Of a DNA stretch of 64,000 bases, positions 798 to 64,000 are shown one piece after another; within the stretch, counting starts at the first letter, position 1, and every line of letters starts with the position of its first letter. The translations under genes and the position numbers were made by a program. Source of the DNA: Octopus vulgaris. Taxonomy: Eukaryota. Where the stretch lies: assembly GCA_951406725.2 (NCBI GenBank), contig OX597841.1, forward strand, positions 22,382,001-22,446,000, given 5' to 3'. Below the pieces are notes generated by a model. That model saw nothing but the letters and a program-made list of their open reading frames with translations, had not been told where the DNA came from and did no database searches.

Positions 798-966
798 ACA
801 CATGCGCACTAAACGTTCTTCCGCCTCCATTCATTACATCAGGACGAACATGTCTGGTGCCAGAATTTCTCTCAATTCACTCCCAAACACATTTATAATA
901 CATTTCTCAACCACCTGAAGCACTTCTAACAACAACACCATCCTTTATAAAGACATTTCCGTAAGT
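798..966 (+). promoter_or_regulatory. Putative promoter, non-coding exon 1 and 5' splice donor of ZNF gene 1
   Basis: CATGCGCA (NRF1-like) and CTTCCG (ETS-like), then a conserved ~110-nt C/A-rich segment ending CC|GTAAGT (GT at 961). The same module lies upstream of the other ZNF genes. Confidence 0.65.
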
Positions 967-3792: not shown

Positions 3793-4049
3793 TTCCTTTG
3801 TTTTCAAATGTAATTCTGGATAAACTAAGAGACAAATTTACCTTTTCTTCTCTTACTCAGTTTGTCTCAGCCAAATTTGGGATCTTTTCCTTTTGAACGG
3901 CACATGGCAACACAATTTCTAGTTAACTAAACACTTTAAAACTTCGTATACTGGTAGAATGTATCAAAATAAAACATTTTTTTCTCTTGGCTTTCTTGAG
4001 AAAATTGTAATTCGTTTGTTTAACGTAGTTTAATTTTTCGAATTTTTAA

Positions 4050-4269
4050 CCCTTTTGATACCAACCTGGCTGAAACCACCTCTGGCTGTGAGTACAAATG
4101 TCTTGTTTCCATTAGTTTTGAAAGAAAATCTTCCACCAAATCTTAGTCACAATATATGTTCTTAACACTTGCTTTATGATAACTAAGTCATTTTACTAAA
4201 TTCTTTGTTATACTTAAAATAATTGACAGAAACACAGAGCATCTCAAAGCAAATACAGTAACAGAAGGG
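4050..4269. mobile_element. piggyBac-like MITE
   Basis: TTAA|CCC...GGG|TTAA with a short imperfect TIR; related copy in opposite orientation at 50580-50799. Confidence 0.6.
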
Positions 4270-4320
4270 TTAAGGTGGTGCTCCAGTATTGTATATATTT
4301 ATTTCTAGAGTTTATCTCTG

Positions 4321-4590
4321 TGGAAATGTTGAATCTGTATTTTTTTAAGTAGCCTCTCTATCTTACACTGTTGTTTCTTTATTATTTCAGAATATCAGAT
4401 GACATTGGCATAACTGAAGATACATTCTCATTATTTATCATCTTTTAAAGACCAAAATGGAAATATTGTACAGAACAGATATATAAGATTGTTTCTATAA
4501 ATCTGTGGTGGAATTCCTCTGATATATTTACTCTGAATTGTGTTATTAGCAAACCTTCTGGACATTACTGGCTGGAGTGTCCACAAGATG
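4321..4590 (+). promoter_or_regulatory. Conserved acceptor/5'UTR block of ZNF gene 1 with uORFs MTLA* (4399-4413) and MEILYRTDI* (4457-4486)
   Basis: Pyrimidine tract TTGTTTCTTTATTATTTCAG| (AG at 4389-4390); all three exon frames are closed; near-identical block before every ZNF ORF. Confidence 0.75.
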
Positions 4591-4761
4591 TGTCTCTTTG
4601 CAAATTAAACTTGGATAAATTTACTAACGAGTTTTGGGACAAAGGTAACACTGGACAGAAATACAGCAGTCAAAATATTTGGAAACAAAAGACTATAGAA
4701 GCAAGCAAGAAGAAAAAAAAATATATATATATATATATTTTGTGATTTTCCATGAAAAATA

Positions 4762-6504
4762 ATGGGAAAAAGTGAGAAACTAAAGAATTTGACTTTTCCA
4801 GAAGACAGAGTAAGAGGAAAACGAAAATTGTCACATGACTGTGATGTCTGTAAAAAGTCCTTCTCTCAGAGGGCCAGCTTAAAGAAGCACAAACATGTTC
4901 ATACAGGGGAGAAGCCATATCAGTGCAATATCTGTAGCAAAACATTCTCTCAGAAGGTTCACTTGACTACACACAAGCGTATTCATACAGGGGAAAAGCC
5001 ATTTCGCTGTGACATCTGTGGTAAATCTTTCTCTAACCGAAGTGATTTAAATTCTCACAAGCGTGTTCATACAGGAGAGAAGCCATATCAGTGTAACATC
5101 TGTAGTAAATCATTCTCTCAAAGTAGTGCTTTAACTCCTCACAAACGTATTCATACCGGGGAGACGCCATATTCCTGTAATATCTGTGGTAAATCATTTA
5201 CTGGCTACAGTGCTTTGACTGATCATCAACGTATTCATACAGGAGAGAAACCATATCAATGTGACATCTGTAACAAATCTTTCACTGTAAATAGTACCCT
5301 AACAAATCACAAACGTACTCACACAGGAGAGACACCATATTCTTGTGATATCTGTGGTAAATCATTCTCCCGAAATGACAACTTAGCTAAACATAAATAT
5401 GTACATACAGGAGAGAAGCCATTTCACTGTGATGTCTGTAATAAATCTTTCTCTCTAAGTAGTACCCTAACTAATCACAAACGTATTCATACAGGAGAGA
5501 CACCATATTATTGTGATATCTGTGGTAAATCATTCACTCAAAGTGGCAACTTAGCTACTCATAAACGCTTCCATACAGGAGAGAAGCCATACCACTGTGA
5601 TATCTGTGGTAAATCATTCTCCGTGAGTTCTAACTTAACTGGACACAAATATATCCATACAGGAGAGAAGCCATATCACTGTGATACCTGTGGTAAACTG
5701 TTCTCCACAAGTAGTTACTTGACTGTACACAAACGTATTCATACAGGAGAGAAGCCCTATCACTGTGATGTCTGTAGTATGTCATTCTCTAATCGAAGTG
5801 CTTTAAATTCACACATACGTGTTCATACAGGGGAGAAGCCATTTCGGTGTGATATCTGTGGTAAATCATTCTCTGGAAGTGGGAAATTGTCTAACCACAA
5901 ACGTATTCATACTGGAGAGAAGCCGTATCACTGTGATATCTGTGGTAAATCATTCTCTAACCAAAGTGCTTTCAATTCTCATAAACGTATTCATACAGGA
6001 GAAAAGCCATATCAGTGTGACATCTGTAGTAAATCATTCTCTGACCGAAGTGCTTTCAATTCTCACAAACGTACACATACAGGAGAGAAACCATATTCTT
6101 GTAATATCTGTGGTAAATCATTCCCTCGCAATTGTGCTTTGACTGATCATAAACGTATTCATACAGGAGAGAAGCCATATAAGTGTGACATCTGTAACAA
6201 ATCTTTCTCTGCCAGCAGTAACCTAACTACTCATAAACGTATTCATACAGGAGAGACACCATATCACTGTTATATCTGTGGTCTATCATTTTCTCAGAGT
6301 AGCGCTTTAACTAGTCACAAGCGTATTCATACAGGAGAAAAGCCATATCCCTGTGATATCTGTGGTCTATCATTTTCTGTAAGTAGTGCTTTAATTAGTC
6401 ACAAGCGTATTCATACAGGAGAGAAGCCATATCCCTGTGATGTCTGTGGTAAATCGTTCTCTCAAAGTAGTGCCTTAACTTCTCACAAGCGTATTCATAC
6501 GTGA
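4762..6504 (+). CDS. C2H2 zinc-finger protein (gene 1), 20 tandem fingers, short N-terminal leader
   Basis: 580-aa ORF of 28-aa CxxC-x12-HxxxH-TGEKP repeats; leader MGKSEK...FPED...LSHDC is shared with genes 4-6. Confidence 0.95.
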   Translation: MGKSEKLKNLTFPEDRVRGKRKLSHDCDVCKKSFSQRASLKKHKHVHTGEKPYQCNICSKTFSQKVHLTTHKRIHTGEKPFRCDICGKSFSNRSDLNSHKRVHTGEKPYQCNICSKSFSQSSALTPHKRIHTGETPYSCNICGKSFTGYSALTDHQRIHTGEKPYQCDICNKSFTVNSTLTNHKRTHTGETPYSCDICGKSFSRNDNLAKHKYVHTGEKPFHCDVCNKSFSLSSTLTNHKRIHTGETPYYCDICGKSFTQSGNLATHKRFHTGEKPYHCDICGKSFSVSSNLTGHKYIHTGEKPYHCDTCGKLFSTSSYLTVHKRIHTGEKPYHCDVCSMSFSNRSALNSHIRVHTGEKPFRCDICGKSFSGSGKLSNHKRIHTGEKPYHCDICGKSFSNQSAFNSHKRIHTGEKPYQCDICSKSFSDRSAFNSHKRTHTGEKPYSCNICGKSFPRNCALTDHKRIHTGEKPYKCDICNKSFSASSNLTTHKRIHTGETPYHCYICGLSFSQSSALTSHKRIHTGEKPYPCDICGLSFSVSSALISHKRIHTGEKPYPCDVCGKSFSQSSALTSHKRIHT

Positions 6505-8675: not shown

Positions 8676-8832
8676 CGCATGCGCATTAAACACACTTCCG
8701 CTTTCATTGATTAGATCAGGAGAAGCCAGAATTTCTCTCAATTCACTCCCAAACACATTTGTAATACATTTCTCTCCCACCTGATGCACTCATAACAACA
8801 ACACCATCCTTTATAAAGACATTTGCGTAAGT
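8676..8832 (+). promoter_or_regulatory. Putative promoter/exon 1/donor of ZNF gene 2
   Basis: CGCATGCGCA at 8676, CTTCCG, conserved exon-1 segment, GTAAGT at 8827. Confidence 0.65.
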
Positions 8833-11702: not shown

Positions 11703-11971
11703 TGGAAATGTTGAATCTGTATTTTTTTAAGTAGCCTCTATATCTTACACTGTTGTTTCTTTATTATTTCAGAATATCAGATGACATTGGCATAACTGAA
11801 GATACATTCTCATTATTTATCATCTTTTAAAGACCAAAATGAAAATATTGTACAGAACAGATATATAAGATTGTTTCTATAAATCTATGGCAGAATTCCT
11901 CTGATATATTTACTCTGAATTGTGTTATTAGCAAACCTTCTGGACATCACTGGCTGAAGTGTCTACAAGAT
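11703..11971 (+). promoter_or_regulatory. Conserved acceptor/5'UTR block of ZNF gene 2
   Basis: AG at 11771-11772; uORFs MTLA* and MKILYRTDI* intact. Confidence 0.75.
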
Positions 11972-12178
11972 GTGTCTCTTTGCAAATTAAACTTGGATAA
12001 ATTTACTAACGAGTTTTGGGACAAAGGTAACACTGGACAGAAATACAGCAGTCGAAATACTTGCAAACAAAAGACTATAGAAGTACAAAGAAGAAGACAT
12101 ATATATATATATATATATATTGTGAATTTTGAAGAATAACAGTGGGAAACTAAAGGATTTGACTTCTCCAGAAGATAA

Positions 12179-14288
<2,110 letters not shown>

Positions 14289-17148: not shown

Positions 17149-17305
17149 CGCATGCGCATTAAACACACTTCCGCTTCCATTCATTAGATCAGGAAAAGGC
17201 CGAATTTCTCTTAATTAAATCCCAAACACATTTATAATACATTTCTCTACCACCTGATGCACTCATAACAACAACACCATCCTTTATAAAGACATTTGCG
17301 TAAGT
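17149..17305 (+). promoter_or_regulatory. Putative promoter/exon 1/donor of ZNF gene 3
   Basis: CGCATGCGCA at 17149; GTAAGT at 17300. Confidence 0.65.
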
Positions 17306-19165: not shown

Positions 19166-19434
19166 TGGAAATGTTGAATCTGTATTTTTTTAAGTAGCCT
19201 CTATATCTTACACTGTTGTTTCTTTATTGTTTCAGAATATCAGATGACATTGGCATAACTGAAGATACATTCTCATTATTTATCATCTTTTAAAGACCAA
19301 AATGAAAATATTGTACAGAACAGATATATAAGATTGTTTCTATAATTCTGTGGTGGAATTCCTCTGATATATTTACTCTGAAATGTGTTATTAGCAAACC
19401 TTCTGGACATCACTGGCTGGAGTGTCTACAAGAT
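19166..19434 (+). promoter_or_regulatory. Conserved acceptor/5'UTR block of ZNF gene 3
   Basis: AG at 19234-19235; both uORFs intact. Confidence 0.75.
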
Positions 19435-19730
19435 GTGTCTCTTTGCAAATTAAACTTGGATAAATTTACTAACGAGTTTTGGGACAAAGGTAACACTGGA
19501 CAGAAATACAGCAGTCGAAATATATGTAAACAAAAGACTATAGAAGCAAGAAGAAAATATATATATATATATATATTGTGAATTTTGAAGAATAACAGTG
19601 GAAAACTAAAGGATTTGACTTCTCCAGAAGATAAAGGGGAGATAAAAATTGTCACATGACTGATGTCTATAAAAAGGCTTTCTTTTAAAGGAGCAGCTTG
19701 AATAAGCAAAAACGTGTTCATACAGGGAAG

Positions 19731-21491
19731 ATGCCATATTCCTGTAATATCTGCAGTAAATCATTTTCTGGCTGCAGTGCTTTAGCTGACCATAAACGTA
19801 TTCATACAGGAGAGAAACCATATCAGTGTGACGTCTGTAACAAATCTTTCACGGTAAATTGTAACCTAATTAATCACAAACGTATTCATACAGGAGAGAA
19901 GCCTTATCAGTGCAACATCTGTAGCAAATCTTTCTCTCTAGGAAGTACCCTAACGAAGCACAAACGTATTCATACAGGTGAGACACCATATTCCTGTAAT
20001 ATCTGTGGCAAATCGCTCTCAAGCAAAAGCAGTTTAACTTCTCACAAGCGTATTCATACAGGTGAGAAGCCATATCGCTGCAATATCTGTAACAAATCTT
20101 TCTCTCTAAGAAGCACCCTAACTAATCACAAACGTATTCATACAGGAGAGACACCATATTCTTGTGATATCTGTGGTAAATCATTCTCCCGAAATGACAA
20201 CTTAGCTAAGCACAAATATGTCCATACAGGAGAGAAGCCACATCCCTGTGATGTATGTAACAAATCTTTCTCTCTAAGAAGCACCCTAACTAATCACAAG
20301 CGTATTCATACAGGAGAGACACCATATTCTTGTGATATCTGTGGTAAATCATTCTTCCGAAATGACACCTTAGCTAAACATAAATATATCCATACAGGAG
20401 AGAAGCCATTTCACTGTGATGTCTGTAACAAATCTTTCTCTCTAAGAAGTACCCTAACTAATCACAAACGTTTCCATACAGGAGAGAAGCCATTTCGCTG
20501 TGATGTCTTTGATAAATCTTTCTCTCTTAGTAGTACCCTAACTAATCACAAACGTATTCATACAAGAGAGGCACCATATCCTTGTGATATCTGTGGTAAA
20601 TCATTCTTTCAACGTGGCAACTTAGCTACTCATAAACGCTTCCATACAGGAGAGAAGCCATATCACTGTGATATCTGTGGTAAATCATTCACCGTGAGTT
20701 GTAACTTAGTTGAACACAAATATATCCATACAGGAGAGAAGCCATTTCACTGTGATACCTGTGGTAAACTGTTCTCTACAAGTAGTTCCTTGACTGTACA
20801 CAAACGTATTCATACTGGGGAGAAGCCCTATCACTGTGAGATCTGTAGTAAATCATTCTCTAATCGAAGTGCTTTAAATTCACACATACGTGTTCATACA
20901 GGGGAGAAGCCATTTCGGTGTGACATTTGTGGTAAAACATTCTCTCGAAGTAATGACTTAACTGAACACAAACGTATTCATACAGGAGAGAAGCCTTATC
21001 ACTGTGATGTCTGTGGTAAATCATTCTCTAACCGAAGTGATTTAAATTCTCACAAACGTATTCATACAGGAGAAAAACCATATCATTGTGACATCTGTAG
21101 TAAATCATTCTCTGACCGAAGTGCTTTCAATTCACACAAACGTACACATACAGGAGAGAAACCATATTCTTGTAATATCTGTGGTAAATCATTCCCTCGC
21201 AACTGTGCTTTGACCGATCATAAACGTATTCATACAGGAGAGAAGCCACATCACTGTGACATCTGTAACAAATCTTTCTCTGCTCGCAGTAACCTAACTA
21301 CTCATAAACGTCTTCATACAGGAGAAAAGCCATATCCCTGTGATATCTGTGGTCTATCATTTTCTGTAAGTAGTGCTTTAATTAGTCACAAGCGTATTCA
21401 TACAGGAGAGAAGCCATATCCCTGTGATGTCTGTGGCAAATCATTCACTCATCGTAGTGGCATAACTTCTCACAAGCGTATTCATACATGA
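19731..21491 (+). CDS. C2H2 zinc-finger protein (gene 3), 21 fingers (one C>F degenerate); ancestral N-terminus disrupted
   Basis: Open ZF array; first in-frame ATG is in the linker TGKMP at 19731; in-frame TAA upstream near 19686. Confidence 0.8.
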
Positions 21492-27736: not shown

Positions 27737-29310
27737 TCTCTTATTATAAAAGGCAGATTTTATCTGCCTCCCTTTGTATCTTATAGAAATCTACAATATA
27801 GGATTTCTTCAATTACAATTTACCTAGCATTTTTAAGAGTAGAATGCATCGGGTCGTGACAGGTCCACTTTTTAAAATTTCAACCCCAATTAAGCAAAAT
27901 TTAGAGAAAACTCACATTGTGGTGTATGAGTCAAATGCTTCTCTTAGTGTGGGTTACAGCACACACACAGTGTGCAACGAATAAAGTGAAACTAATTCAC
28001 TTTCTGTAGTGAGTGACTATTTCACTCTACGTTCCCACTTCCACTTTACACACATAGACACGCAAATATATAAATAAAATTGTAAGCTAACGTGTGTGTG
28101 TGTGCGTGAGTGTGTGACAGGAAAGTTTTTTACGACGAATATAAGACCTATATCCAAGTAGCAGAAAGATCGCCCAAAAGTGTATATAGATATTTAAATG
28201 TATTTATATATTCATCTATACACAGATGTATGTATAATGTGTGTGTATATATTTCCATAGAGGTAACCTTTCACTCCATACAAATTTTTTTTAAGACGAA
28301 TATAAGATCTAAAGTTATCTCTAAGAAAAAGAAAGATCGCCCAAAAGTGTATATAGATATTTAAATGTATTTATATATTCATCTATACACACATGTATGT
28401 ATAATGTGCGTGTATATATTTCCATAGAGGTAACCATTCAATCCATACAAAGTTTTTTAGGACGAAAATATTTATATATAAAAGAAAGGTTGTGTGTCTG
28501 TCTACTCCGATTTAGATTCCTAACTACTCCCACATTTTGCAATGCAGTTTAACCAAAACCGGGTATCTTATAGTCGTGATTCATATCGAGCCCTTCTGGG
28601 TATTAGCGCGCGTCTACGATGAGTCTATGATTTTACAAATAATTTACCATCATTTTTTTCCATTTTAATGCATATTTTTTTAAATAAAGGGAAGTTACTC
28701 TCAAACTTCACACCAATATGCGTGCTCATATGCGACGTAATATCACATCAGCAGCATTTCCTCACACCCTCCTTGCACTTGGCGAAGGCAAAATACCAGG
28801 GGATGAAAATGGTAATATTGCCATCGATTCCATTTGTACCATTGTTAAGACGCCTTCTGATCTCAGAGATGCAGTGTTCCAAGATCTACAAGCTAATTAT
28901 CAGAATATGGATTGGATTGGCCAAAAGGCTATACTGGCCCCGAGGAATAAAACTGTTCACCATATTAATGATGAAATGCTAAAACTCATTCCTGGGGAAG
29001 TCTATGTATATCAGTCTATCGATACAACTCCTGACCCAGAGGACGTCATCAACTATCCAATAGAGGTACTCAATTCCTTTGAGCACCCCGGACTACCACC
29101 ACACTTTCTCAAACTTAAAGTTGGTGCCCCTATACTGCTCATCAGAAATTTGGTTCCCCCAAAACAATGCAATGGCACACGTTTGGCGTTAAGTCCTTAT
29201 CTCCCACCGTAAACTTATATCAATATTTGCCTGAATAATCATCATAATTCAGTGCAATCATTAACAGTACTTTCAAGCAATTCAGCCCCGAGCAACGCCG
29301 GGTAGTTCTA
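27737..29310 (+). mobile_element. Helitron derivative
   Basis: 5' TC start, internal helicase fragment, 3' hairpin CCCGAGCAACGCCGGG followed by a degenerate CTAG; segment 28470-28700 matches the Helitron at 54992-55465. Confidence 0.75.
28718..29212 (+). pseudogene. Helitron PIF1-like helicase C-terminal fragment
   Basis: Motifs AILAPRN, YPIEVLNS, GLPPHFLKLKVGAPILLIRNL, CNGTRL. Confidence 0.9.
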
Positions 29311-30082: not shown

Positions 30083-30250
30083 CGCATGCGCACTAAACGT
30101 TCTTCCGCCTCCATTTATTACGTCTTGACAAAAGTGTCTGATTCCAGAATTTCCATTAATTCACTCCGAAACGCATTTATAATAGATTTCTTTACCACCT
30201 GACATAGCAACAACAACAACACCATCCTTTGTAAAGACATTTCCGTAAGT
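30083..30250 (+). promoter_or_regulatory. Putative promoter/exon 1/donor of ZNF gene 4
   Basis: CGCATGCGCA at 30083, CTTCCG, GTAAGT at 30245. Confidence 0.65.
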
Positions 30251-33152: not shown

Positions 33153-33419
33153 GGGAAATGTTGAATCTGTATTTTCTAAGTAGCCTCTCTATCTTACACT
33201 GTTGTTTCTTTATTCTTTCAGAATATCAGATGACATTGGCATAACTGAAGATACATTCTCATTATTTATCAGCTTTTAAAGACCAAAATGAAAATATTGT
33301 ACAGAACAGATATATAAGATTGTTTCTATAAATCTGTGGTGGAATTCCTCTGATATATTTACTCTGAAAATGTTATTAGCAAATCTTCTGGACATCACTG
33401 GCTGGAGTGTCTACAAGAT
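33153..33419 (+). promoter_or_regulatory. Conserved acceptor/5'UTR block of ZNF gene 4
   Basis: AG at 33220-33221; both uORFs intact. Confidence 0.75.
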
Positions 33420-37804: not shown

Positions 37805-40800
37805 TGAGAAGAGTAAACCATTGTTCCCAACAAGTCAGAAGAGTAAAACGTTCGCTGCAAAAAAGTAAAATCAATTGTTCCCTACTAGTAAGAAGAGCAA
37901 ATTGTTGTTCCCTGCGAGTGAGAGGCGTAAATCGTTGTTCCCTGCAAGTGAGAGGAGCAAATCGTTGTTCCCTGCGAGTGAGAGGAGCAAATGAGAGGAG
38001 CAAATCGTTGTTCCCTGCAAGTGAGAGGAGCAAATCGTCCTTCCCTGCAAGTGAGAGGAGCAAATCGTTGTTCCCTGCAAGTGAGTGAGGAGCAAATCGT
38101 TGTTCCCTGCAAGTGAGAGGAGCAAATCGTTGTTCCCTGCGAGTGAGAGGAGCAAATCGTTGTTCCCTGCAAGTGAGAGGAGCAAATCGTTGTTCCCTGC
38201 AAGTGAGAGGAGCAAATCGTTGTTCCCTGCAAGTGAGAGGAGCAAATCGTTGTTCCCTGCAGAGTGAGAGGAGCAAATCGTTGTTCCCTGCGAGTGAGAG
38301 GAGCAAATCGTCCTTCCCTGCAAGTGAGAGGAGCAAATCGTTGTTCCCTGCAAGTGAGAGGAGCAAATCGTTGTTCCCTGCAAGTGAGAGGAGCAAATCG
38401 TTGTTCCCTGCAAGTGAGAGGAGCAAATCGTCCTTCCCTGCAAGTGAGAGGAGCAAATCGTTGTTCCCTGCAAGTGAGAGGAGCAAATCGTTGTTCCCTG
38501 CGAGTGAGAGGAGCAAATCGTTGTTCCCTGCGAGTGAGAGGAGCAAATCGTTGTTCCCTGCAAGTGAGAGGAGCAAATCGTCCTTCCCTGCAAGTGAGAG
38601 GAGCAAATCGTTGTTCCCTGCAAGTGAGAGGAGCAAATCGTTGTTCCCTGCGAGTGAGAGGAGCAAATCGTTGTTCCCTGCAAGTGAGAGGAGCAAATCG
38701 TTTCCCTGCAGTGAGGGCAAATCGTGTCCAGTGAGAGGAGCAAATCGTTGTTCCCTGCAAGTGAGAGGAGCAAATCGTTGTCCCTGCAAGTGAGAGGAGC
38801 AAATCCTGCAAGTGAGAGGAGCAAATCGTTGTTCCCTGCAGTGAGAGGAGCAAATCGTTGTTCCCTGCAAGTGAGAGGAGCAAATCGTTGTTCCCTGCAA
38901 GTGAGAGGAGCAAATCGTCTTCCCTGCAAGTGAGAGGAGCAAATCGTTGTTCCCTGCAAGTGAGAGGAGCAAATCGTTGTTCCCTGCAAGTGAGAGGAGC
39001 AAATCGTTGTTCCCTGCAAGTGAGAGGAGCAAATCGTTGGTCCCTGCAAGTGAGAGGAGCAAATCGTTGTTCCCTGCAAGTGAGAGGAGCAAATCGTTCT
39101 TCCCTGCAAGTGAGAGGAGCAAATCGTTCTTCCCTGCAAGTGAGAGGAGCAAATCGTTGGTCCCTGCAAGTGAGAGGAGCAAATCGTTGTTCCCTGCGAG
39201 TGAGAGGAGCAAATCGTCCTTCCCTGCAAGTGAGAGGAGCAAATCGTTGTTCCCTGCGAGTGAGAGGAGCAAATCGTTGTTCCCTGCGAGTGAGAGGAGC
39301 AAATCGTTGTTCCCTGCAAGTGAGAGGAGCAAATCGTTGTTCCCTGCAAGTGAGAGGAGCAAATCGTCCTTCCCTGCAAGTGAGAGGAGCAAATCGTTGT
39401 TCCCTGCAAGTGAGAGGAGCAAATCGTTTTCCCTGCAAGTGAGAGGAGCAAATCGTTGTTCCCTGCAGCAAGTGAGAGGAGCAAATCGTTGTTCCCTGCA
39501 AGTGAGAGGAGCAAATCGTTGTTCCCTGCAAGTGAGAGGAGCAAATCGTTGTTCCCTGCAAGTGAGAGGAGCAAATCGTTCCCGTGCCCTGCAAGTGAGA
39601 GGAGCAAATCGTTTCCCTGCAAGTGAGTCGAGAGGAGCAAATCGTTGTCCCTGCGAGTGAGAGGAGCAAATCGTTGTTCCCTGCAGTGAGAGGAGCAAAT
39701 CGTTGTTCCCTGCAGTGAGAGGAGCAAACGTTGTTCCCTGCAGTGAGAGGAGCAAATCGTTTCCTGCAGTGAGAGGAGCAAATCGTTGTTCCCTGCAAGT
39801 GAGAGGAGCAAATCGTTGTTCCCTGCAAGTGAGAGGAGCAAATCGTTGTTCCCTGCGAGTGAGAGGAGCAAATCGTTGTTCCCTGCAAGTGAGAGGAGCA
39901 AATCGTTGTTCCCTGCAAGTGAGAGGAGCAAATCGTTGTTCCCTGCAAGTGAGAGGAGCAAATCGTTGTTCCCTGCAAGTGAGAGGAGCAAATCGTTGTT
40001 CCCTGCAAGTGAGAGGAGCAAATCGTTGGTCCCTGCAAGTGAGAGGAGCAAATCGTTGTTCCCTGCGAGTGAGAGGAGCAAATCGTCCTTCCCTGCAAGT
40101 GAGAGGAGCAAATCGTTGTTCCCTGCAGAGAGGAGCAAATCGTTTCTTCCCCTGCAAGTGAGAGGAGCAAATCGTTGTTCCCTGCAAGTGAGAGGAGCAA
40201 ATCGTCCTTCCCTGCAAGTGAGAGGAGCAAATCGTTGTTCCCTGCAGTGAGAGGAGCAAATCTGTTCCTTCCCTGCAAGTGAGAGGAGCAAATCGTTGTT
40301 CCCTGCAAGTGAGAGGAGCAAATCGTTGTTCCCTGCGAGTGAGAGGAGCAAATCGTTGTTCCCTGCAAAGTCAAATCGTTTTCCCTGCAAGTGAGAGGAG
40401 CAAATCGTTGTTCCCTGCAAGTGAGAGGAAATCGTTTTCCCTGCAAGTGAGAGGAGCAAATCGTCCTGTTCCCTGCAAGTGAGAGGAGCAAATCGTTGTT
40501 CCCTGCAAGTGAGAGGAGCAAATCGTTGTTCCCTGCAGTGAGAGGAGCAAATCGTTGTTCCCTGCAAGTGAGAGGAGCAAATCGTTGTTCCCTGCAAATC
40601 GTTGTTCCCTGCAGTGAGAGGAGCAAATCGTTGTTCCCTGCAAGTGAGAGGAGCAAATCGTTGTTCCCTGCAAGTGAGAGGAGCAAATCGTCCTTCCCTG
40701 CAAGTGAGAGGAGCAAATCGTTGTTCCCTGCAAGTGAGAGGAGCAAATCGTTCTTCCCTGCAAGTGAGAGGAGCAAATCGTCCTTCCCTGCAAGTGAGAG

Positions 40801-41838
40801 GAGCAAATCGTTCCCTGCAAGTGAGAGGAGCAAATCGTTGTTCCCTGCGAGTGAGAGGAGCAAATCGTCCTTCCCTGCAAGTGAGAGGAGCAAATCGTTG
40901 TTCCCTGCAAGTGAGAGGAGCAAATCGTTCTTCCCTGCAAGTGAGAGGAGCAAATCGTTGTTCCCTGCAAGTGAGAGGAGCAAATCGTTGTTCCCTGCAA
41001 GTGAGAGGAGCAAATCGTTGTTCCCTGCAAGTGAGAGGAGCAAATCGTTGTTCCCTGCAAGTGAGAGGAGCAAATCGTTGTTCCCTGCAAGTGAGAGGAG
41101 CAAATCGTTGTTCCCTGCGAGTGAGAGGAGCAAATCGTTGTCCCTGCAAGTGAGAGGAGCAAATCGTTGTTCCCTGCAAGTGTTGTTCCCTGCAGTGAGA
41201 GAGCAAATCGTTCGTTCCCTGCAAGTGAGAGGAGCAAATCGTTGTTCCCTGCGAGTGAGAGGAGCAAATCGTTGTTCCCTGCAAGTGAGAGGAGCAAATC
41301 GTTGTTCCCTGCAAGTGAGAGGAGCAAATCGTTGTCCCTGCAAGTGAGAGGAGCAAATCGTTGTTCCCTGCAAGTGAGAGGAGCAAATCGTTGTTCCCTG
41401 CAAGTGAGAGGAGCAAATCGTTCTGAGAGGAGCAAATCCCTGCAAGTGAGAGGAGCAAATCGTTGTTCCCTGCAAGTGAGAGGAGCAAATCGTTGTTCCC
41501 TGCAAGTGAGAGGAGCAAATCGTTGTTCCCTGTTTCCTGCAAGTGAGAGGAGCAAATCGTTGTTCCCTGCAGAGTGAGAGGAGCAAATCGTTCTTCCCTG
41601 CAAGTGAGAGGAGCAAATCGTTGTTACCTGCGAGTGAGAGGAGCAAATCGTTGTTCCCTGCAAGTGAGAGGAGCAAATCGTTGTTCCCTGCAAGTGAGAG
41701 GAGCAAATCGTTGTTCCCTGCAAGTGAGAGGAGCAAATCGTCCTTCCCTGCAAGTGAGAGGAGCAAATCGTTGTTCCCTGCAAGTGAGAGGAGCAAATCG
41801 TTGTTCCCTGCAAGTGAGAGGAGCAAATCGTCCTTCCC
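37805..41838. repeat. 30-bp satellite/minisatellite, ~130 copies
   Basis: Consensus GAGAGGAGCAAATCGTTGTTCCCTGCAAGT; recurrent variants TCGTCCTTCCC and TGCGAGT; degenerate units at the left edge. Confidence 0.98.
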
Positions 41839-48600: not shown

Positions 48601-49773
48601 TCAGTGGGATTGCTTCTTCCCCTGATGAACACGTTTGTGAGAAGTTAAGTTGCCACGTTGAGTGAATGATTTACCACAGATATCACAAGAATATGGCTTC
48701 TCTCCAGTATGAATACGTTTGTGTGTAGTCAAAGAACTAGTTCTGGAGAACAATTTGCCACAGATATCACAGCGATAGGGCTTCTCTCCTGTATGAATAC
48801 GTTTGTGTCCAGTTAAGACACCCTTTTGAGAGAATGATTTGTCACAAAAGTCACAGTGATATGGTGTTTCTCCTGTATGAATGCGTTTGTGATTAATCAC
48901 GCTATTTTTGAATGAGAAAGATTTGTTACAAATGTCACAGCAATATGGTTTCTCTCCTGTATGAACACGTACGTGGGTAGTTAAAGCACTCCTCTGAGAG
49001 AATGATTTACTACAGACATCACAGTGAAAAGGCTTCTCTCCTGTATGAACACGTTTGTGAGATTTTAAAATACTTTGGACAGAGAATGACATACCACAGA
49101 TATCACAGTGATATGGCCTCTCTCCTGTATGAATACGTTTGTGTGTATTCAAGTTACCTTTTTCGAAGAATGATTTATCACAGATGCCACAGTGAAATCG
49201 TTTTTCCTTTGTATGAACACATATGTGAGAATACGAAGCCCTTCGACCAGAGAATGGTATACCACAGACATCACAGGGATATGGCTTCTCTCCTGTATGA
49301 ATATATTTGTGTGTGGTCAAGCTACTTTCCCGAAAGAATGATTTACCACAGATGTCACAGCGAAATGGCTTCTCCCCCGTATGGAAACGCTTGTGAGAAA
49401 CTAAGATGCCACTGCGAGAGAATGATTTACCACAGACATCACAGTGAAAAGGCTTCTCCCCTGTATGAATACGTTTGTGAATAGTCAAGTTATAATTTCG
49501 AGAGAATGATTTACCACAGATGTCACAATGATAAGGCTTCTCTCCTCTATGATTACGTTTGTGTACAGTCAAGGTATAATTTCGACGGAATGAGTTACCA
49601 CAAATGTCACAGTGATGGGGCTTCTCTCCTCTATGAATACGTTTGTGCGCATTCAAGCTGCTCTTTTGAGAGAAATACTTTTTACACACATCACACTTAT
49701 GCGACAATTTTTGTGTCCCTTTTTCTTTATCTTCAGGAAAAATCAGTTCCTTTATTTTCTCACTCTTTTCCAT
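48601..49773 (-). CDS. C2H2 zinc-finger protein (gene 5), 13 fingers
   Basis: 390-aa ORF, MEKSEK leader, ends [12 protein letters not shown]. Confidence 0.95.
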
Positions 49774-49909
49774 TATTTTTATTCTACTTCTTGCTTCAGT
49801 AGTCTTTTGTTTCCAAATATTTCAACTGCTGTATTGCTGTCCAGTGTTATCCTTGTCTCCAAACTCTTTGGTAAATTTTTTCCCAGTATAATTTGCAAAC
49901 AGATTTATC

Positions 49910-50180
49910 ATGTAGACACTCCAGCCAGTGATGTCCAGAAGGTTTGCTAATAACACAATTCAGAGTAAATATATCAGAGGAATTCCACCACAGATTTATA
50001 GAAACAATCTTATATATCTGTTCTGTACAATATTTCCATTTTGGTCTTTAAAAGATGATAAATAATGAGAATGTATCTTTGGTTATGCCAATGTCATCTG
50101 ATATTCTGAAATAATAAAGAAACAACAGTGTAAGATATAGAGGCTACTTAAAAAAATACAGATTCATCATTTCTATAAAG
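49910..50180 (-). promoter_or_regulatory. Conserved acceptor/5'UTR block of ZNF gene 5
   Basis: Exon starts at 50105 on the minus strand; both uORFs intact. Confidence 0.75.
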
Positions 50181-50799: not shown

Positions 50800-52084
50800 T
50801 TTGTAGACAGTTGCTCTCATAAATTCCAAAATAAAATTTTGGATTTATAGAGGGTCAAAGTTGGGAACAAAACTAGGACAGTGGAGGCATACAAGGAAAC
50901 CAAACGAAATACAACCATACGCGCAAGTCGTTGTAGGTTCGACTACTCATGACTAGCTAGCGCGAGTGCGCGCACCAGGACCGCTGTTCGCTAGTAGTAC
51001 CAAAGGATGTGCTAAAGTAGTTTGGTTTGTTGTGGTGATGGGGGGGGTGGGGGTGAGAAGCTCTCTTGTGAAGTGGGTGGGACACACAGCACTTCTAGAA
51101 CTCAGTTTCACTGATGTGGGTGGGTCTTCTCAGTTTGATTATAATCATGGAGGACTTCATCACAAACGAAACCATCCTCATGAGGGTGGGGCAGGGCATT
51201 ATGTCTTTGCACATGGAATACTTAAAATGCCATTTGTACACTTACTGTACCCTCGAACCGGCTGTGGACGATGTCCTTTAACCCAGAGTCTCTATATTTA
51301 TCTTACATAATAGGCGCAGGAGTGGCTGTGTGGTAAGTAGCTTGCTTACCAACCACATGGTACCGGGTTCAGTCCCACTGCGAATCGGGGACGTGCGATA
51401 CAAGTATATATCGTATATATACAAGTAAATACGTATATATCGATACAAGTATATATCGTATATATACAAGTAAATACGTATATATCGATACAAGTATATA
51501 TCATATATATCGTGCATGCGCCAGCCAGCTCGTAGGATCGACTGGCTACGTCTGGCTAGCGCGGACGCGCGTCTGCGTGTGTGCGCAAACCGGGACCACT
51601 CTGCGATACAAGTAGCCTTCGGTACTAAGCTTTATAAATATAGATTTGACACAGGTATAAGAGTTAGAACTTGAGGGTACTACTGGCGTATACAGGTCCC
51701 GTTGCGCGGCGACGCACGTAGTCGATACTACGACTAGGGCGTATGCAAATGAGTTCATTTGCGCATGAGCAAATCAGAACTGTATCGAACAAATTAAATA
51801 AAACGCAAGTAAATAATTCTTGAAAATTAATTGCCATTAAGGCAATCTTTCGTCTCTAGTAGACCTTTCCGTCGATTTCCGTAAATTTCTTTTCTTTTTT
51901 TTACATATTTTTTGAACAAAGTAAATAATTTTTTGGTAATCGAAAAATTGCCAATTTTTAAAACTTAATTATTATTTTTTTTTGGCACTGTCGTGCTTTT
52001 AGCTGTCAGAAGTGAAAGTCGTCAACTTCGTGTATTTACGTCAGGTTTGTACCTTCGTTAATTTACGCCGTTCATTTACGTACC

Positions 52085-52300
52085 ACCAATGACCACCACC
52101 CCCACCGCGATCACATACACCAATCATACACACGTGTGTGTGTGTATATGTGGCTATATGTCTGACTAATGTCTGTGTGTCTGTATAAATAGTTATATGC
52201 TTATATTATCCATTATAGTAATATTTGTCTGTTGAAATCCGTTTTAAGGCAGTCAATAGTTTAATTAAAGATGTGTCTATACATGTATATATACATGTGT

Positions 52301-52336
<36 letters not shown>

Positions 52337-52550
52337 GTGTAATGTATACACATGTATATATATATATATACATGTATAGACACATCTTTAATTAAACTAT
52401 TGACCGCCTTAAGACAGATTTCAACAGACAAATATTACTATATAACTACTTATACAGACACACAGACATTAGTCAGACATATAGCCACATATATACACAC
52501 ATACACACGTATGATTGTTGTATGTGATCGCGGTGGTGGTGGTCATTTGG
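52085..52550. repeat. Long inverted repeat (~210-bp arms around a TA-rich centre)
   Basis: 52085-52290 is the reverse complement of 52365-52550, with few mismatches and one small indel. Confidence 0.9.
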
Positions 52551-52746
52551 GCAGATTTGGTGTGATTTCTTTTTTAAAAACAATAATGAATAATGCAAGA
52601 ATACATCTATTTATAAAGTTTAAACAGAACATGGAATGAAATGCATTTATTTATAAACTTTAAACTGAACTTCACACAGATGTATATATATCTTTTTTTA
52701 CACAAATTAAACAAAGTAAATAAAAAAATTAATATCTCACATTTGT

Positions 52747-53628
52747 TCATCTCGCTTCTTCGAATGTGTACCATTCGGAAAGGTGTTTGAGAATATTCTC
52801 AAAACACTCTTTCCCACACTTCCCATATCGGTCCTTCCAAAGGAATTCGTCCAGATACAGCTCCAACATGTTGGAGTGTGCCCCCATCATCGTCTTAAAG
52901 CGCCTTTTCGCATTCTTCCAGTAACACGCCACAGAATTCGTGTGTACGTGTGTCACTGGATCAACGAAATTCTTGGAATGGTTGACTGTGAAATGGATGT
53001 ATTTGGGTGTCACATCCATTTCAGTAATCCCATTGTAAGCACCCCAACTATCCGAATAAACCGTAGTGCCTGGTCTTATAAATTTCTTGATGACGGGTAG
53101 CAGACTTTCGGAGGAATGGTCAGGTACGACGGCTAGAAAACCATTCTTGTCTTCTCTATCCCATCCTCCGAAAACAAACCTCTCTTGTGGCATCCCACCT
53201 CTGTTATATTTCCATTCACCAATTTCAACGATGTGCCCGACTCCACCAATTTGGTATGGGTTCTTGTGAAGGTGGTTGCTCGTAATATCGCGGAAATAGT
53301 AATACCACTGGATCACGGTGCTTTTGGACAAACCAGTCAGTGCTGTTGCTGCTGGAATCGCTATGTTGAGACTCCATGAAAATGTTAATGTGAGGAAATC
53401 ACGTAGCTTTAGCTTGGACTTTTCAAGGTAGGAATTCTTCCGGATGGACACCTTCACACCTTTGTGCGTCGGGCAGCGGAATATCTTCTCATCGTTGTAC
53501 TTTATCAGCGTCATCTCTTTCTGGCATTGTACACATCGGGGATGAACACTATTGAGCACTTTCTTCTCCTTCAGAAACGAATACGTCGTTTCAAAGTCTC
53601 TAAGAAGAGGCGAGAATTCAGACAACAT
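52747..53628 (-). CDS. Merlin/ISXO2 (IS1595-family) transposase-like ORF, catalytic residues apparently altered
   Basis: CxxC..CxxH zinc ribbon, GGVGHIVEIGE, KYNRG, VFGG, LLPVIKKFIRPGTTVYSDSWGAY, VNHSKNFVDP, HTNSVACYW, YLDEFLWK. Likely start at 53628; the ORF is open to 53739. Confidence 0.88.
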   Translation of the reverse strand: MLSEFSPLLRDFETTYSFLKEKKVLNSVHPRCVQCQKEMTLIKYNDEKIFRCPTHKGVKVSIRKNSYLEKSKLKLRDFLTLTFSWSLNIAIPAATALTGLSKSTVIQWYYYFRDITSNHLHKNPYQIGGVGHIVEIGEWKYNRGGMPQERFVFGGWDREDKNGFLAVVPDHSSESLLPVIKKFIRPGTTVYSDSWGAYNGITEMDVTPKYIHFTVNHSKNFVDPVTHVHTNSVACYWKNAKRRFKTMMGAHSNMLELYLDEFLWKDRYGKCGKECFENILKHLSEWYTFEEAR

Positions 53629-53923
53629 TTTCACACGAGTAATAATCTGTGCTACTAAAAAGTGCGGGAGAATAAAATTTACAAGACCACGTGGTAAGAA
53701 TTTAGTTAGCTCTGATTGGTTAGCTTGTAGTGACGTCATTCTTCAGGGTGCGCGTGCGGGGCTGCAACCTTCTGGAAAGGCCTAAGGAAGTTCCCTCATG
53801 CACATGCGCTAAAAAATGGGTAAAAAAAAAATTTCTATAGCGTTCCTTATTAGCGTCGGTCACTTGAGACACGGCTTTTGAAGGGAGAGGACGTGTGATG
53901 AGCCTATTCTCCTGTCCCAGTAT

Positions 53924-54676
53924 TGGCGGTGAGCTGGCAGAATCGTTAGCACGCCGGGTGAATTGCGTAGTCGTATTTCGTCTGCCGTAACGTTCCGAGT
54001 TCAAATTCCGCTGAGGTCGACTTTGCCTTTCATCCTTTCGGGGGGTCGATAAATTAAGGACCAGTTACGCACTGGGGTCGATATAATCGACTTAATCCCT
54101 TTGTCTGTCCTTGTTTGTCCCTTCTGTGTTTAGCCCCTTGTGGGTAATAAAGAAATAGCTATTTCGTACGTCGTTACGTTGTGAGTTCAAATTCCGCCGA
54201 GGTCGACTTTGCCTTTCATCCCTCCAGGGTCAATAAATTAAGTACCAGTTACGCACTGGGGTCGGTATAATCGAATTAATACCTATGTCTGTCCTTGTTT
54301 GTCCCCTCTATGTTTAGCCCCTTGTGGGTAATAAAGAAATAGGTATTTCGCCTGCCGCTACATTCTAAGTTCAAATTCCGCCGAGGTCGACTTGGCCTTT
54401 CATCCTTTCGGGGTCGATGTAATCGACTTAATCCCTTTGTCTGTCCTTGTTTGTCCCCTCTGTGTTTAGCCCCTTGTGGGTAATAAAAAAATAGGTATTT
54501 CGTACGTCGTTACGTTGTGAATTCAAATTCCGCCGAGGTCGACTTTGCCTTTCATCCCTCCAGGGTCAATAAATTAAGTACCAGTTACGCACTGGGGTCG
54601 GTATAATCGAATTAATACCTATGTCTGTCCTTGTTTGTCCCCTCTATGTTTAGCCCCTTGTGGGTAGTAAAGAAAT
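53924..54676 (+). mobile_element. SINE family B multimer with 16-bp TSD
   Basis: One tRNA-like head followed by four tandem bodies; TSD TATTCTCCTGTCCCAG at 53905-53920 and 54678-54693. Confidence 0.85.
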
Positions 54677-54991
54677 GTATTCTCCTGTCCCAGACGCTTG
54701 GGATTTGACCTGCTCCGTTGCTCCTGAATTTGTTGTGAGGTTTATCTTACAAGTGTTAAACTTCAGCATTGCTGCACCGACACCAAGAGGTTACTAATTT
54801 ACCAACGTGCCTTCTTTTTGTAAATAAGAAAATAAAGAGTCATATATTTTTCAAGGTTGCTTTCTTGTTCCTGGCTGGTAGTTTCTGGAAACAAAAATGG
54901 AAATTGTGTTGCACCCGAACAGTGTAAAGACACAACCAGTTCCTTTACAGGCTTTTAGGAGCAAATTCTTACAACTCCCTTTTATTTACAA

Positions 54992-55465
54992 CTAGCAGTA
55001 TCGCCCGGCGTTGCTCGGATTTCTAAGGGAAATAACTATATAAGCATTCTTAGAGTTATAGCAAAAAAAAATGGGAAAAAATGATGGTAAATTTTTTTTG
55101 AATCGTTGACTCATCGTAGACATTTTTAGAGAGTTACTTCCCTTATATAATAGCGAAAAAATGCATTAAAATGGAAAAAAATGATGGTAAATTTTTTTAA
55201 AATCGTTGACTCATCGTAGACATTTTTAGAGAGTTACCTCCCTTATATAATAGCGAAAAAATGCATTTAAAATGGGAAAAAATGATGGTAAATTTTTTAA
55301 AAATCGTAGACTCATCGTAGACGCGCGCTAATACCCAGAAGGGCTCGATATGAATCACGACTATAAGATACCCGGTTTTGGTTAAACTGCACCGCAAAAG
55401 GTGGGAGTAGTTAGGAATCTAAATCGTAGGAGACAGACACACAACCTTACTTTTATATATAAAGA
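54992..55465 (-). mobile_element. Non-autonomous Helitron
   Basis: Minus strand A|TC...CCGAGCAACGCCGGG hairpin...CTAG|T; internal ~100-bp tandem duplications. Confidence 0.85.
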
Positions 55466-56329: not shown

Positions 56330-56494
56330 ACTTACGGAAATGGTTTAAAAAGGATGGTGTTGTTGTTAGAAGTGCGTCAGGTGGTTGAGAAATGTATTAT
56401 AAATGTGTTTGGGAGTGAATTGAGAGAAATTCCGGGGCCCGACACGCATGTCAAGACGTAATGAATGGAAGTGGAAATAGGTTGTGCGCATGCG
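56330..56494 (-). promoter_or_regulatory. Putative promoter/exon 1/donor of ZNF gene 5
   Basis: TGCGCATGCG at 56485-56494; minus-strand GTAAGT at 56335-56330; implies intron 56335-50106. Confidence 0.65.
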
Positions 56495-59422: not shown

Positions 59423-59691
59423 ATCTTGTAGACACTCCAGCCAGTGATGTCCAGAAGGTTTGCTAATAACACAATTCAGAGTAAATATATCAGAGGAATT
59501 CCACCACAGATTTATAGAAACAATCTTATATATCTGTTCTGTACAATATTTTCATTTTGGTCTTTAAAAGATGATAAATAATGAGAATGTATCTTCAGTT
59601 ATGCCAATGTCATCTGATATTCTGAAATAATAAAGAAACAACAGTGTAAGATATAGAGGCTACTTAAAAAAATACAGATTCAACATTTCCA
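59423..59691 (-). promoter_or_regulatory. Conserved acceptor/5'UTR block of ZNF gene 6
   Basis: Exon starts at 59621 on the minus strand; both uORFs intact. Confidence 0.75.
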
Positions 59692-60469
59692 TAAAGATAA
59701 ACTCTAGAAATAAACATTTAACTGAACAACAGAACTTTTTAATTTATTAATATTTACATCACAAAATCCTGTTTGAAGCTAAAATATTTCTAAACTCCAG
59801 CTCCACATTCATAAATACACACACACACACACTTTTTTACTGGTTTCAGTTGTTTTGACTGCGGTCATGCTGGAGCACCAACTTTAAAGGCTTCAGTCAC
59901 TAGAATCAATGCTAGGACTTATTTTTTGAGCTTAGCACTTATTCTATCAGCAACTTTTGCAAAACCACAAGTTTATGGGAGCATAAACACACCAACACTG
60001 TTTATCAAGTGTTGAAGGGGTGGGAGGACAACACACCCACACACACATATACATTGGGCTTCCTTCAGTTTCCATCTCCCAAATCCATTCACAAGGCTTT
60101 GGTCAGCCAGAAGCTATTGTAGAAAATACTTGTGATTGAGCCTGGAGCCATATCTGTGTGTGCGTGTGTATATAATTTATTTAAAGGTCACAATATACGT
60201 ATTAAAGCGCTACTAACAGCTCCATATGCTTTAGAAACCTGAAACATATTCTTCAGGCATAAACCATGTATCATAACAAGCTAAAGAAATAGAATAAGAG
60301 AAGAAACATGAAAATCTGTGGAGGGAGCATACAGAAAATGCAGGCAGTAAACAATGGTAATTGAAAAACAGAAACCAAAATGTAAAAAGGTAAAAGAGCT
60401 ATCCTCCTTAAACGATAAGGATGGGAAAATGTCAAGTGAGTCAGGAATAGGCAGAATTTTCCAATTCTT

Positions 60470-61144
60470 CAAAATATATTTATACATATGCTTGCGATCA
60501 CTGAAAATTTCTGACCTGGAGTTGAATAGAGGGGTACAGATCGTAGAGCTTAACAGAATCTGTGCCCTTTAAGGCGGCGAGCTGGCAGAAACGTTAGCAC
60601 GCCAGGCAAAATGCTTAGCGCTACTTTGTCTGCCGTTACGTTCTGAGTTCAAATTCCGCCAAGGTCAACTTTGCCTTTCATCCTTTCGGGGTGGATAAAT
60701 TAAGTACCAGTTATACACTGGGGTCGATGTAATCAACTTAATCCCTTTGTCTGTCCTTGTTTGTCCCCTCTATGTTTAGCTCCTTGTGGGCAATAAAGAA
60801 ATAAGAATCTGTGCCCTTTCAGCTGAACAATGTCTACAATTATGCAATCCCTTCACATAAGGTAGGGATTTCTCAATTACTTTCCATTTAATCACATGCA
60901 ATGTTTCGTTATCTTTCAGGGTCCATATGAAGTTCGTCAACTTTATTTTTGTCCCTATGTGATTGGAAGAGCGATTTTTAAATTCTCCTCCACATAATCC
61001 AACAGAGGCCTTCTTATTAGTTGTATTATTATTTAGGGTTGCAGTAACGTCTGTCTTATATACGATAGATTTAGTCATACATCTTTGGTCAAGTGGACAG
61101 GATACTGGGTTGCAACTGGATTCAGGCTTCTTGGTATTGAGCAC
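60470..61144 (-). pseudogene. Penelope-like GIY-YIG endonuclease fragment interrupted by a SINE
   Basis: CPLDQRC..KSIVY...VGLCGGEFKNR..NH...LTNFIWTLK...IKWKVI...CRHCSAE, resuming after the SINE as LFNSRSEIFS. Confidence 0.75.
60571..60803 (+). mobile_element. SINE family B monomer with 16-bp TSD
   Basis: TSD AGAATCTGTGCCCTTT at 60555-60570 and 60804-60819. Confidence 0.9.
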
Positions 61145-61229
61145 TGGTACTGATACTCTTCATATTGGGGGCAGATATGACAATTTCGTAGAACCCCTAT
61201 TTTCTCTATCTGTAGAAAAAACGGCCGTT

Positions 61230-61646
61230 GAAGAGAATATCTTACAAACATGTTACAAACTCTAGAATTTTCTCAATAAAGCCAAGAGGAAAAGATGTTT
61301 TATGTAACACATTCTACCAGTATACGAAGTTTAAAAGTTTTTAGTTACCTAGAAATTATGTTAAAAACTGCCGTTCAAACAAAAGATCCCCAATCTGTTT
61401 CTTAAACGGGGGACATATTCATACGGCACAGAATATTTTTTTACCTCAATAGACGTGAGTGATTGGTTAAAATTGACGAAATGCAAGAAATTAAAGTGGA
61501 AATATCTTACAAACTACAGAATTTTCTCAATAAAGCCAAGAGGAAAAGATGTTTTATGTAACACATTCTACCAGTATACGAAGTTTAAAAGTTTTTAGTT
61601 ACCTAGAAATTATGTTAAAAACTGCCGTTCAAACAGAAAAGATCCA
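61230..61646. mobile_element. Two tandem right ends of MITE family D
   Basis: AAAACTGCCGTTCAAAC..AAAAGATCC at ~61389 and ~61646, each preceded by the same ~140 bp. Confidence 0.65.
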
Positions 61647-61814
61647 TAAACTTTGCCTTTCACTTTTTTTCTGCTGGGGTTCAATAAAATAAATACCAGT
61701 TGACTACTCGGGTCCATGAAATCGACTGACACTTGACCCTCCCCGAAATTTCTGGTTTTCTACCAAAATCTTTAAAAAACAAAAGAAAAAAAGAAGAAAA
61801 ACCAGTATTTCATA

Positions 61815-61981
61815 CGCATGCGCACTAAGCGTATTTCCGCCTCCATTCATTCATTTTAACAAACTCGATTCAAGTCGGAATTTCTCTCAATTCACTCCCA
61901 AACACATTTATAATACATTTCTCAACCACCTGACGCACTTCTAACAACAACACCATCCTTTTTTAAACCATTTCCGTAAGT
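61815..61981 (+). promoter_or_regulatory. Putative promoter/exon 1/donor of a seventh ZNF gene
   Basis: CGCATGCGCA at 61815; GTAAGT at 61976. Confidence 0.65.
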
Positions 61982-63900: not shown

Positions 63901-64000
63901 TGGAAATGTTGAATCTGTATCTTTTTAAGTAGCCTCTATATCTTACACTGTTGTTTCTTTATTATTTCAGAATATCAGATGACATTCGCATAACTGAAGA
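63901..64000 (+). promoter_or_regulatory. Start of the conserved acceptor/5'UTR block of gene 7 (CDS expected beyond the window)
   Basis: TTCTTTATTATTTCAG| at 63970; uORF1 reads MTFA*. Confidence 0.75.

Follow-up and report, generated by a model that had tools for sequence, protein, structure and literature searches.

A 270-bp block in front of tandem octopus zinc-finger genes is probably kept uniform by gene conversion among paralogs

Seven zinc-finger genes and their recurrent block

The stretch of octopus DNA analysed here (the window, 64,000 nucleotides, G000:C28:22382001-22446000 of a 2.8-Gb assembly) contains seven tandem C2H2 zinc-finger (ZNF) genes in both orientations. The original prediction described an ultra-conserved non-coding module of about 270 bp in front of each of them. 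All seven copies that it listed are present, with a correction for gene 5, whose minus-strand copy starts at about 50174 and not at 50180, some 6 nt away. The features are the following.

801..808, plus strand: motif CATGCGCA, proximal to the promoter of gene 1 and kept ahead of exon 1 across paralogs, which we take to be NRF1-like
820..960, plus strand: exon 1 of gene 1, non-coding and with an approximate 5' end; donor GT at 961
4321..4588, plus strand: uniform, probably homogenised block of gene 1, last 70 nt of intron 1 and first 198 nt of exon 2 (5' UTR)
4345..4420, plus strand: core of the gene 1 block, with polypyrimidine tract, acceptor AG at 4389-4390, exon start at 4391, second AG at 4397-4398 and upstream ATG (uATG)
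4399..4413, plus strand: four-codon upstream open reading frame (uORF) of gene 1 (M-T-L-A-stop), with preferential retention of the start codon but of neither peptide nor stop
4451..4588, plus strand: 3' half of the gene 1 block, uniform inside the subfamily and without long-term constraint
4762..6504, plus strand: gene 1 coding sequence, a 26-residue leader and about 20 C2H2 fingers, with no further domain
8826..8827, plus strand: exon 1 donor of gene 2, by homology
11703..11970, plus strand: block copy of gene 2, exon start at 11773
17299..17300, plus strand: exon 1 donor of gene 3, by homology
19166..19433, plus strand: block copy of gene 3, a young duplicate of gene 2
30244..30245, plus strand: exon 1 donor of gene 4, by homology
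about 33154..33418, plus strand: block copy of gene 4, a chimeric gene
about 49908..50174, minus strand: block copy of gene 5, exon start at 50105, main ATG at 49773
56335..56336, minus strand: exon 1 donor of gene 5, by homology
59424..59691, minus strand: block copy of gene 6, exon start at 59621, main ATG at 59266
61975..61976, plus strand: exon 1 donor of gene 7, by homology
63901..64000, plus strand: block copy of gene 7, cut by the window end (the whole copy is 98% identical in the genome)

The expected layout of about 70 nt of intron and 200 nt of exon holds: the block is made of 70 nt of intron end and 198 nt of 5' UTR, because splicing joins position 960 of exon 1 to position 4391 of exon 2 (GT..AG). 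This joint is found in contigs from sequencing runs X1 and X6, whose status as RNA is a guess and in which paralogs are collapsed; it is absent from the contigs of X18 and X21, the latter being uninformative since they do not cover the block. In gene 1, the main ATG (4762) follows the block by about 170 nt. Most copies have a homologous promoter and exon 1 at 1-5 kb upstream, and a single first exon common to the whole cluster was rejected because most genes own an exon 1. No exon 1 is recognisable for gene 6 (minus strand), which faces the promoter and exon 1 of gene 7 head to head (59700-61980), possibly owing to a bidirectional promoter or a lost exon. In genes 2 and 3 (12080-12300 and 19540-19750), the start codon of the leader is lost and frameshifts precede long intact finger arrays. 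About 85 nt into intron 1 (1021-1051), next to a bin with a diversity of 0.033, the paralogs keep an ATGGCGG motif that is presumably YY1-like. Further AGs at 4397-4398 and 4449-4450 are candidate alternative acceptors. Splicing to the one at 4449-4450, which comes after a stretch rich in pyrimidines that distant paralogs keep, would skip the uATG; in a paralog at G000:C28 near 2337880, the 8 nt that separate the first two AGs are precisely deleted.

The cluster also harbours remains of mobile elements and satellites. An open frame of 331 aa with an ISXO2/IS1595-type transposase domain (Pfam E 7.9e-19; 52747-53742, minus strand) sits in intron 1 of gene 5, on the same strand as that gene; around it, in 51501-55000, there are no exact 14-bp inverted repeats more than 800 bp apart. 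A Pif1 helicase 2B-domain fragment (28688-29212, plus strand; Pfam E 5e-13) probably derives from a Helitron. A 30-bp minisatellite of about 128 units (37987-41838) yields long repetitive open frames, and the cluster has further satellites, e.g. a 105-bp unit across 20 kb at C28:22.13-22.15 Mb.

Beyond the window, we sorted the copies of the block into four groups, which leave out two split or orphan copies: 1) type A, 42 copies at least 94% identical within 536 kb around the window; 2) type B, 10 copies at 85-88% identity that form a single contiguous run within the cluster; 3) 11 A-type copies lying 11-20 Mb away from the cluster; and 4) 29 diverged copies (69-90% identity) on C9, C10, C21, C28, and C29. 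In the search of genomic DNA with the block, 40 of 547 candidates were scored. The 19-nt motif around the acceptor has 119 exact matches genome-wide, against none for the reversed control, so that the recurrence is not due to chance. As predicted, the block precedes ZNF arrays: of the 127 motif sites in the loci covered, 120 have at least four fingers downstream on the same strand, and four have none (one of them at a locus edge). Conversely, 119 of 130 finger arrays have the motif within 2.5 kb, five have a form that is diverged by eye, and the remaining six are interrupted fragments. These associations imply that the block is a part of the gene and not a dispersed repeat, and they contradict the idea of a young repeat scattered independently of ZNF genes. 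Elsewhere on the same contig, at 6.7-8.75 Mb (loci L101, L102, and L104-L108), there are seven near-identical dispersed copies with 6-7 fingers each. In two public proteins (P0001, P0002) tied to these loci by their leader, not by position, the fingers are joined to a C-terminal part of about 200 residues, for which Pfam gave no match.

Uniformity of the block and exchange among its copies

Genes 1 and 6 differ at 4 of the 270 positions of the block, as the original prediction had it, and at 10 of 27 residues (19 of 78 nt) in their leaders. Among the 42 cluster copies, the mean pairwise difference per 20-nt bin is 0.00-0.05 over 4321-4580 (0.10 in one bin) and reaches at least 0.15 in the bins from 4581 on, which gives the block a sharp right edge. 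For the 37 of these copies in which exon 1 was found, the median difference is 0.030 in the block, 0.109 in exon 1, 0.161 in the UTR after the block, 0.152 in the leader, 0.155 in finger 1, and 0.226 in finger 2. The median for the homologous upstream intron is 0.098, from 497 of 666 pairs, the others being dropped as non-homologous or too short. A drop in conservation had been described on both sides. It is sharp on the right, and real on the left but smaller than gene 1 suggests, because the upstream intron of gene 1 is replaced. The term ultra-conserved is apt inside the subfamily, whereas distant paralogs match the block at just 69-90%. Within the cluster, the similarity of blocks is unrelated to the physical distance between them (r 0.00).

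Three arguments support a focal gene-conversion tract, which had been named as the alternative to a constrained element. First, the differences between blocks saturate with the age of the pair. When pairs are binned by age (703 of 706 pairs fall inside the bins), the flanks differ by 0.015, 0.028, 0.057, 0.077, 0.128, and 0.176, and the block by 0.010, 0.022, 0.029, 0.023, 0.032, and 0.033: the divergence of the block levels off near 3% at any pair age. Twelve disjoint young pairs have a total of 51 differences in the block, for 56.5 expected at the flank rate and 10.3 expected for a slow element, taken as 0.18 of the flank rate, the ratio measured in 520 old pairs. The Poisson probability of 51 against 10.3 (P 1e-19) is overstated because differences cluster in tracts, and five of the 12 pairs show zero block differences because their flanks are near-identical too. 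The block is thus not a slowly evolving element.

Second, 33 of these 51 differences involve alleles that also occur in paralogs with a downstream divergence above 8%, for a chance of 0.106 per fresh mutation. Genes 2 and 3, which are about 97-98% alike on both sides of the block, have seven differences in it, four of which are alleles common in distant paralogs. Flanks share alleles likewise (23 of 38), so exchange is not restricted to the block.

Third, the variants of the block are freely shuffled among copies. The fraction of site pairs with four gametes is 0.36, equal to the free-recombination null of 0.36 (25 collapsed copies, 25 informative sites), whereas each of the six other segments stays under its null and keeps linkage. 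Beyond 40 nt, r2 within the block is 0.047 for a null of 0.041. The distances in the 3' half correlate with those of no other segment, and those in the 5' half correlate weakly with those of their neighbours (r 0.29-0.35). Disrupted genes (15), with 5.1 block differences, have not decayed further than intact ones (27), with 4.3 (P=0.30), in a crude classing that miscalls gene 1 itself. Minority alleles, which are unpolarised, include 23 GC-to-AT and 22 AT-to-GC changes, with no visible GC bias, and rare variants are in excess (37 of 62 are singletons).

Likely constraint in the acceptor region and probably at an upstream ATG

Strong constraint had been proposed for all of the 270 bp; some exists in the 5' part, in the acceptor region and at a preferentially kept uATG, and the claim does not extend to the rest. 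Positions +61 to +198 differ by 0.18-0.41 from 17 outgroup paralogs (outside A and B), where the UTR after the block differs by 0.23-0.33. Hence, the 3' half lacks long-term constraint, and over long times it evolves at the flank rate. The 5' half (-70 to +60, i.e. 4321-4450) differs from the outgroups by 0.07-0.28, about half the flank divergence, a value partly lowered because many outgroups were found by the exact motif.

Other subfamilies hold their own, different, and internally uniform versions of the block. Between B and A, the 5' half differs by 0.02-0.08, as it does within B, and at 4481-4570 B is a separate uniform pool (0.11-0.22 between groups against 0.00-0.04 within). A cluster at 3.2 Mb of C28, represented by 10 of its 13 genes, lacks most of the 3' half by deletion and shows a plateau of its own from about -40, while two old C21 clusters have no plateau, with differences of 0.18-0.37 in that region. 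The plateau is predicted by position and identity, not by a particular sequence.

The 11 remote A-type copies differ by 2.2-4.1% from the nearest cluster block and by 5-23% in their flanks. They have 7-12 differences from the cluster majority, against 5.1 in the cluster, which fits isolation, yet they show no decay to the flank level. Their similarity could reflect selection or long-range exchange. Cluster genes without a young relative have 1.8% in the block and 10% in the flank, so a recent departure of the remote copies would look similar. A protein of O. bimaculoides carries the A-type leader.

Within type A, three of 56 columns are variable at 4359-4414 (bounds chosen post hoc), against 54 of 212 in the rest of the block, where variable columns are evenly spread (22-29%). 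An invariant 19-nt core was discarded as an artefact of ascertainment: the motif seems invariant because copies were found by exact match, and neighbours in the clusters that were found through their arrays carry 1-4 or more changes. The best-kept feature of the exon is the ATG at +9, with 5 of 67 letters changed for 13.0 expected from the flanking exon positions (P about 0.01, in a post hoc test on 23 genes lacking the exact motif, uncorrected for phylogeny). An ATG lies within the first 16 nt in 24 of the 27 genes of two C21 clusters; it is missing in the three others, and in two of the 57 genes in and beside the main cluster. With the uORF at 4399-4413, the spliced leader has an AUG ahead of the main ORF. 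Its stop is not preferentially kept (stop positions differ by 0.19-0.23, like neighbouring ones), uORF lengths range from 2 to 48 codons, and the encoded peptide varies. Most leaders have 3-7 further uATGs after the first; other uATGs are somewhat depleted (732 against 1082 by base shuffling). The pattern of substitutions suggests that true constraint is limited to the acceptor region, which is likely, and to one upstream ATG, which is probable; a translational effect of the uORF type is a plausible function of the latter. A kept uATG just after the acceptor in more than 100 genes on several chromosomes would be a small lead on the translational control of cephalopod ZNF genes.

Probable gene conversion, rival explanations and known systems

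Our main reading, to which we give a probability of roughly 0.75, is that the block is kept uniform by repeated interlocus gene conversion among paralogs, with constraint limited to the acceptor region and probably one uATG. This process may involve 1) a constrained stretch of 60-70 nt around the acceptor, supplying perfect identity that would seed short conversion tracts; 2) a feedback by which the resulting uniformity favours more conversion; 3) tracts of a few hundred bases, which would keep the adjoining UTR uniform; 4) indels, transposon insertions, and diverged haplotypes, which may halt the tracts at about 4321 and 4589; and 5) an escape of the fingers from conversion, presumed because they diversify. 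At a simple equilibrium, where the difference equals the mutation rate divided by the per-donor conversion rate, each donor copy would have to convert at a rate some 30 times that of mutation, by our own estimate, which ignores allelic diversity. In a toy model with 13 settings and two seeds for each, a flat plateau with sharp edges arose in part of the settings, most clearly when barriers to the tracts were placed by hand and conversion was attempted often; without a constrained core, the plateau decayed in one of the two seeds at those settings. Such a model may serve as a plausibility check, not as evidence.

A bolder proposal, which we regard as unlikely, is that conversion is actively initiated at a dedicated hotspot where the untranslated exon begins. 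Such a hotspot would hold a common translational brake, formed by the uATG with its context, identical in dozens of genes, spread regulatory change through the family, and sometimes swap promoters between finger arrays, while the fingers diversify.

It is quite unlikely that strong purifying selection maintains the whole 270 bp as a cis element of the A subfamily, be it a DNA site, a small-RNA site, or an RNA-protein site, with conversion shuffling only the few variants that are tolerated. The sharp edges, the remote copies still within 2.2-4.1%, the excess of singletons, and near-identical contigs from organisms A and B (2 differences in 200 nt and 1 in 165 nt; organisms of unspecified distance) are in its favour. 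However, divergence is not proportional to pair age, as young pairs differ at the flank rate; the 3' half is unconserved not only in outgroups, where it diverges like the sequence after it, but even in the B subfamily inside the cluster; and variable columns are evenly spread outside the core. There is also no sign of a known RNA family or of an RNA structure: Rfam gave over 3800-5000 a best match at chance level (E 4.6, 17 bits for 100 needed), the folding of the block and of its exon part gave no signal (z +0.84 and -0.12), none of 56 pairs was compensatory, and 52 diverse copies had no consensus fold.

Crossovers in the block do make chimeric genes. Gene 4 is 98% like G000:C28:22202012 upstream and 98% like G000:C28:22212009 downstream, and it is, with gene 7, among seven triplets in which ancestry switches inside the block, although these were selected such that the switch had to fall near it. 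One could thus view the block as an actively initiated recombination hotspot and swap joint, where crossovers bring together the promoter and exon 1 of one gene with the finger array of another and cause tandem duplications. Linkage agrees with this view (r2 is about 0.12 among exon 1, intron start, and intron end over kilobases and 0.05-0.08 across the block). So do the young pairs that turn old, 9 of 57 across the block and none in the intron controls (of 43 and 50 pairs), and the plateau at the same position in three subfamilies. Yet, clade links break more often further downstream, in 17 of 24 cases into the finger array and in 6 of 29 between the post-block UTR and the leader, than across the block (3 of 21). 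The block is thus not the unique joint for swaps, since switches of ancestry are commoner in the finger array, and this weakened candidate seems to us very improbable.

Even smaller odds go to a single and recent sweep of one block haplotype through the cluster, adaptive or by chance, that is now decaying. The star-like variation (37 singletons among 62 variants) and the separate uniform types of the A and B 3' halves speak for it, but alleles of intermediate frequency (5-11 of 25 copies) occur in all combinations and were exchanged even between young duplicates, which requires continued exchange. Finally, there is a negligible probability that the block is a young transposon or other repeat, encodes a non-coding RNA, or contributes a cryptic coding exon, in spite of the high identity of copies and of an open stretch of about 89 codons in one frame of gene 1, given the fixed place of the block ahead of the fingers, the negative result in Rfam, and the indels of 1-3 nt and stops among paralogs. 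These indels and stops rule out a coding frame or one opened by editing, and all three exon frames are, as predicted, closed in every copy whose translation was inspected. When the open stretch was compared with proteins 150-2000 residues long, one candidate came up and none was scored, which is weak evidence.

The block offers a clean case of a sequence that looks ultraconserved among paralogs without the matching constraint. Octopus ZNF genes are mosaics in which promoter, leader, and fingers differ in history, and this affects gene trees, orthology, and read mapping in this large family.

Short sequence-independent uORFs are known from 5' leaders, where the start codon is kept and the encoded residues vary. 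The octopus ZNF leaders resemble them in this respect and differ from them in that the stop is not preferentially kept and that most leaders have several further uATGs.

We found no account of the block in the literature searched, in line with the original prediction, which knew of none either; an annotation of these UTRs may exist in supplements. The genes resemble the clustered, domain-less tandem C2H2 expansions of cephalopods in the parts covered of three studies (PMC12513265, PMC9068888, PMC10547256). The covered text of PMC12513265 makes no mention of UTR, exon, upstream, or gene conversion, and the covered passages of PMC10547256 make none of UTR or conversion. The sole conversion passage in the covered part of PMC9068888 suggests homogenisation by gene conversion for cephalopod protocadherins, not C2H2 genes, and that of PMC9699675 mentions C2H2 genes in general terms only.

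Known systems account for much of what we observe. In vertebrate clustered protocadherins, EC4-6 are described as homogenised by regional gene conversion while EC2-3 are diverse (PMC4978886, in the part covered). The octopus genes are similar in being tandem paralogs with a homogenised region beside a specificity-determining region that escapes; they differ in belonging to a C2H2 family and in a tract that is not coding ectodomain but the end of an intron and part of the 5' UTR (about 270 nt). According to the covered parts of two further sources, non-allelic gene conversion in humans has a mean tract of 250 bp and slows with divergence (10.1101/135152), and conversion among Caenorhabditis paralogs occurs in local high-identity stretches and is stopped by indels or mobile elements (PMC3966223). 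The octopus block would match these cases in a tract of about 250 bp, in a dependence on identity, in the local identity within diverged paralogs, and in the halting of tracts by indels and mobile elements. Unlike in them, some 40 donors in both orientations share one patch, and, unlike in humans, where GC bias is reported, none is visible in the block. Regional conversion in tandem families is well known, and the block is explained mainly by this known process.
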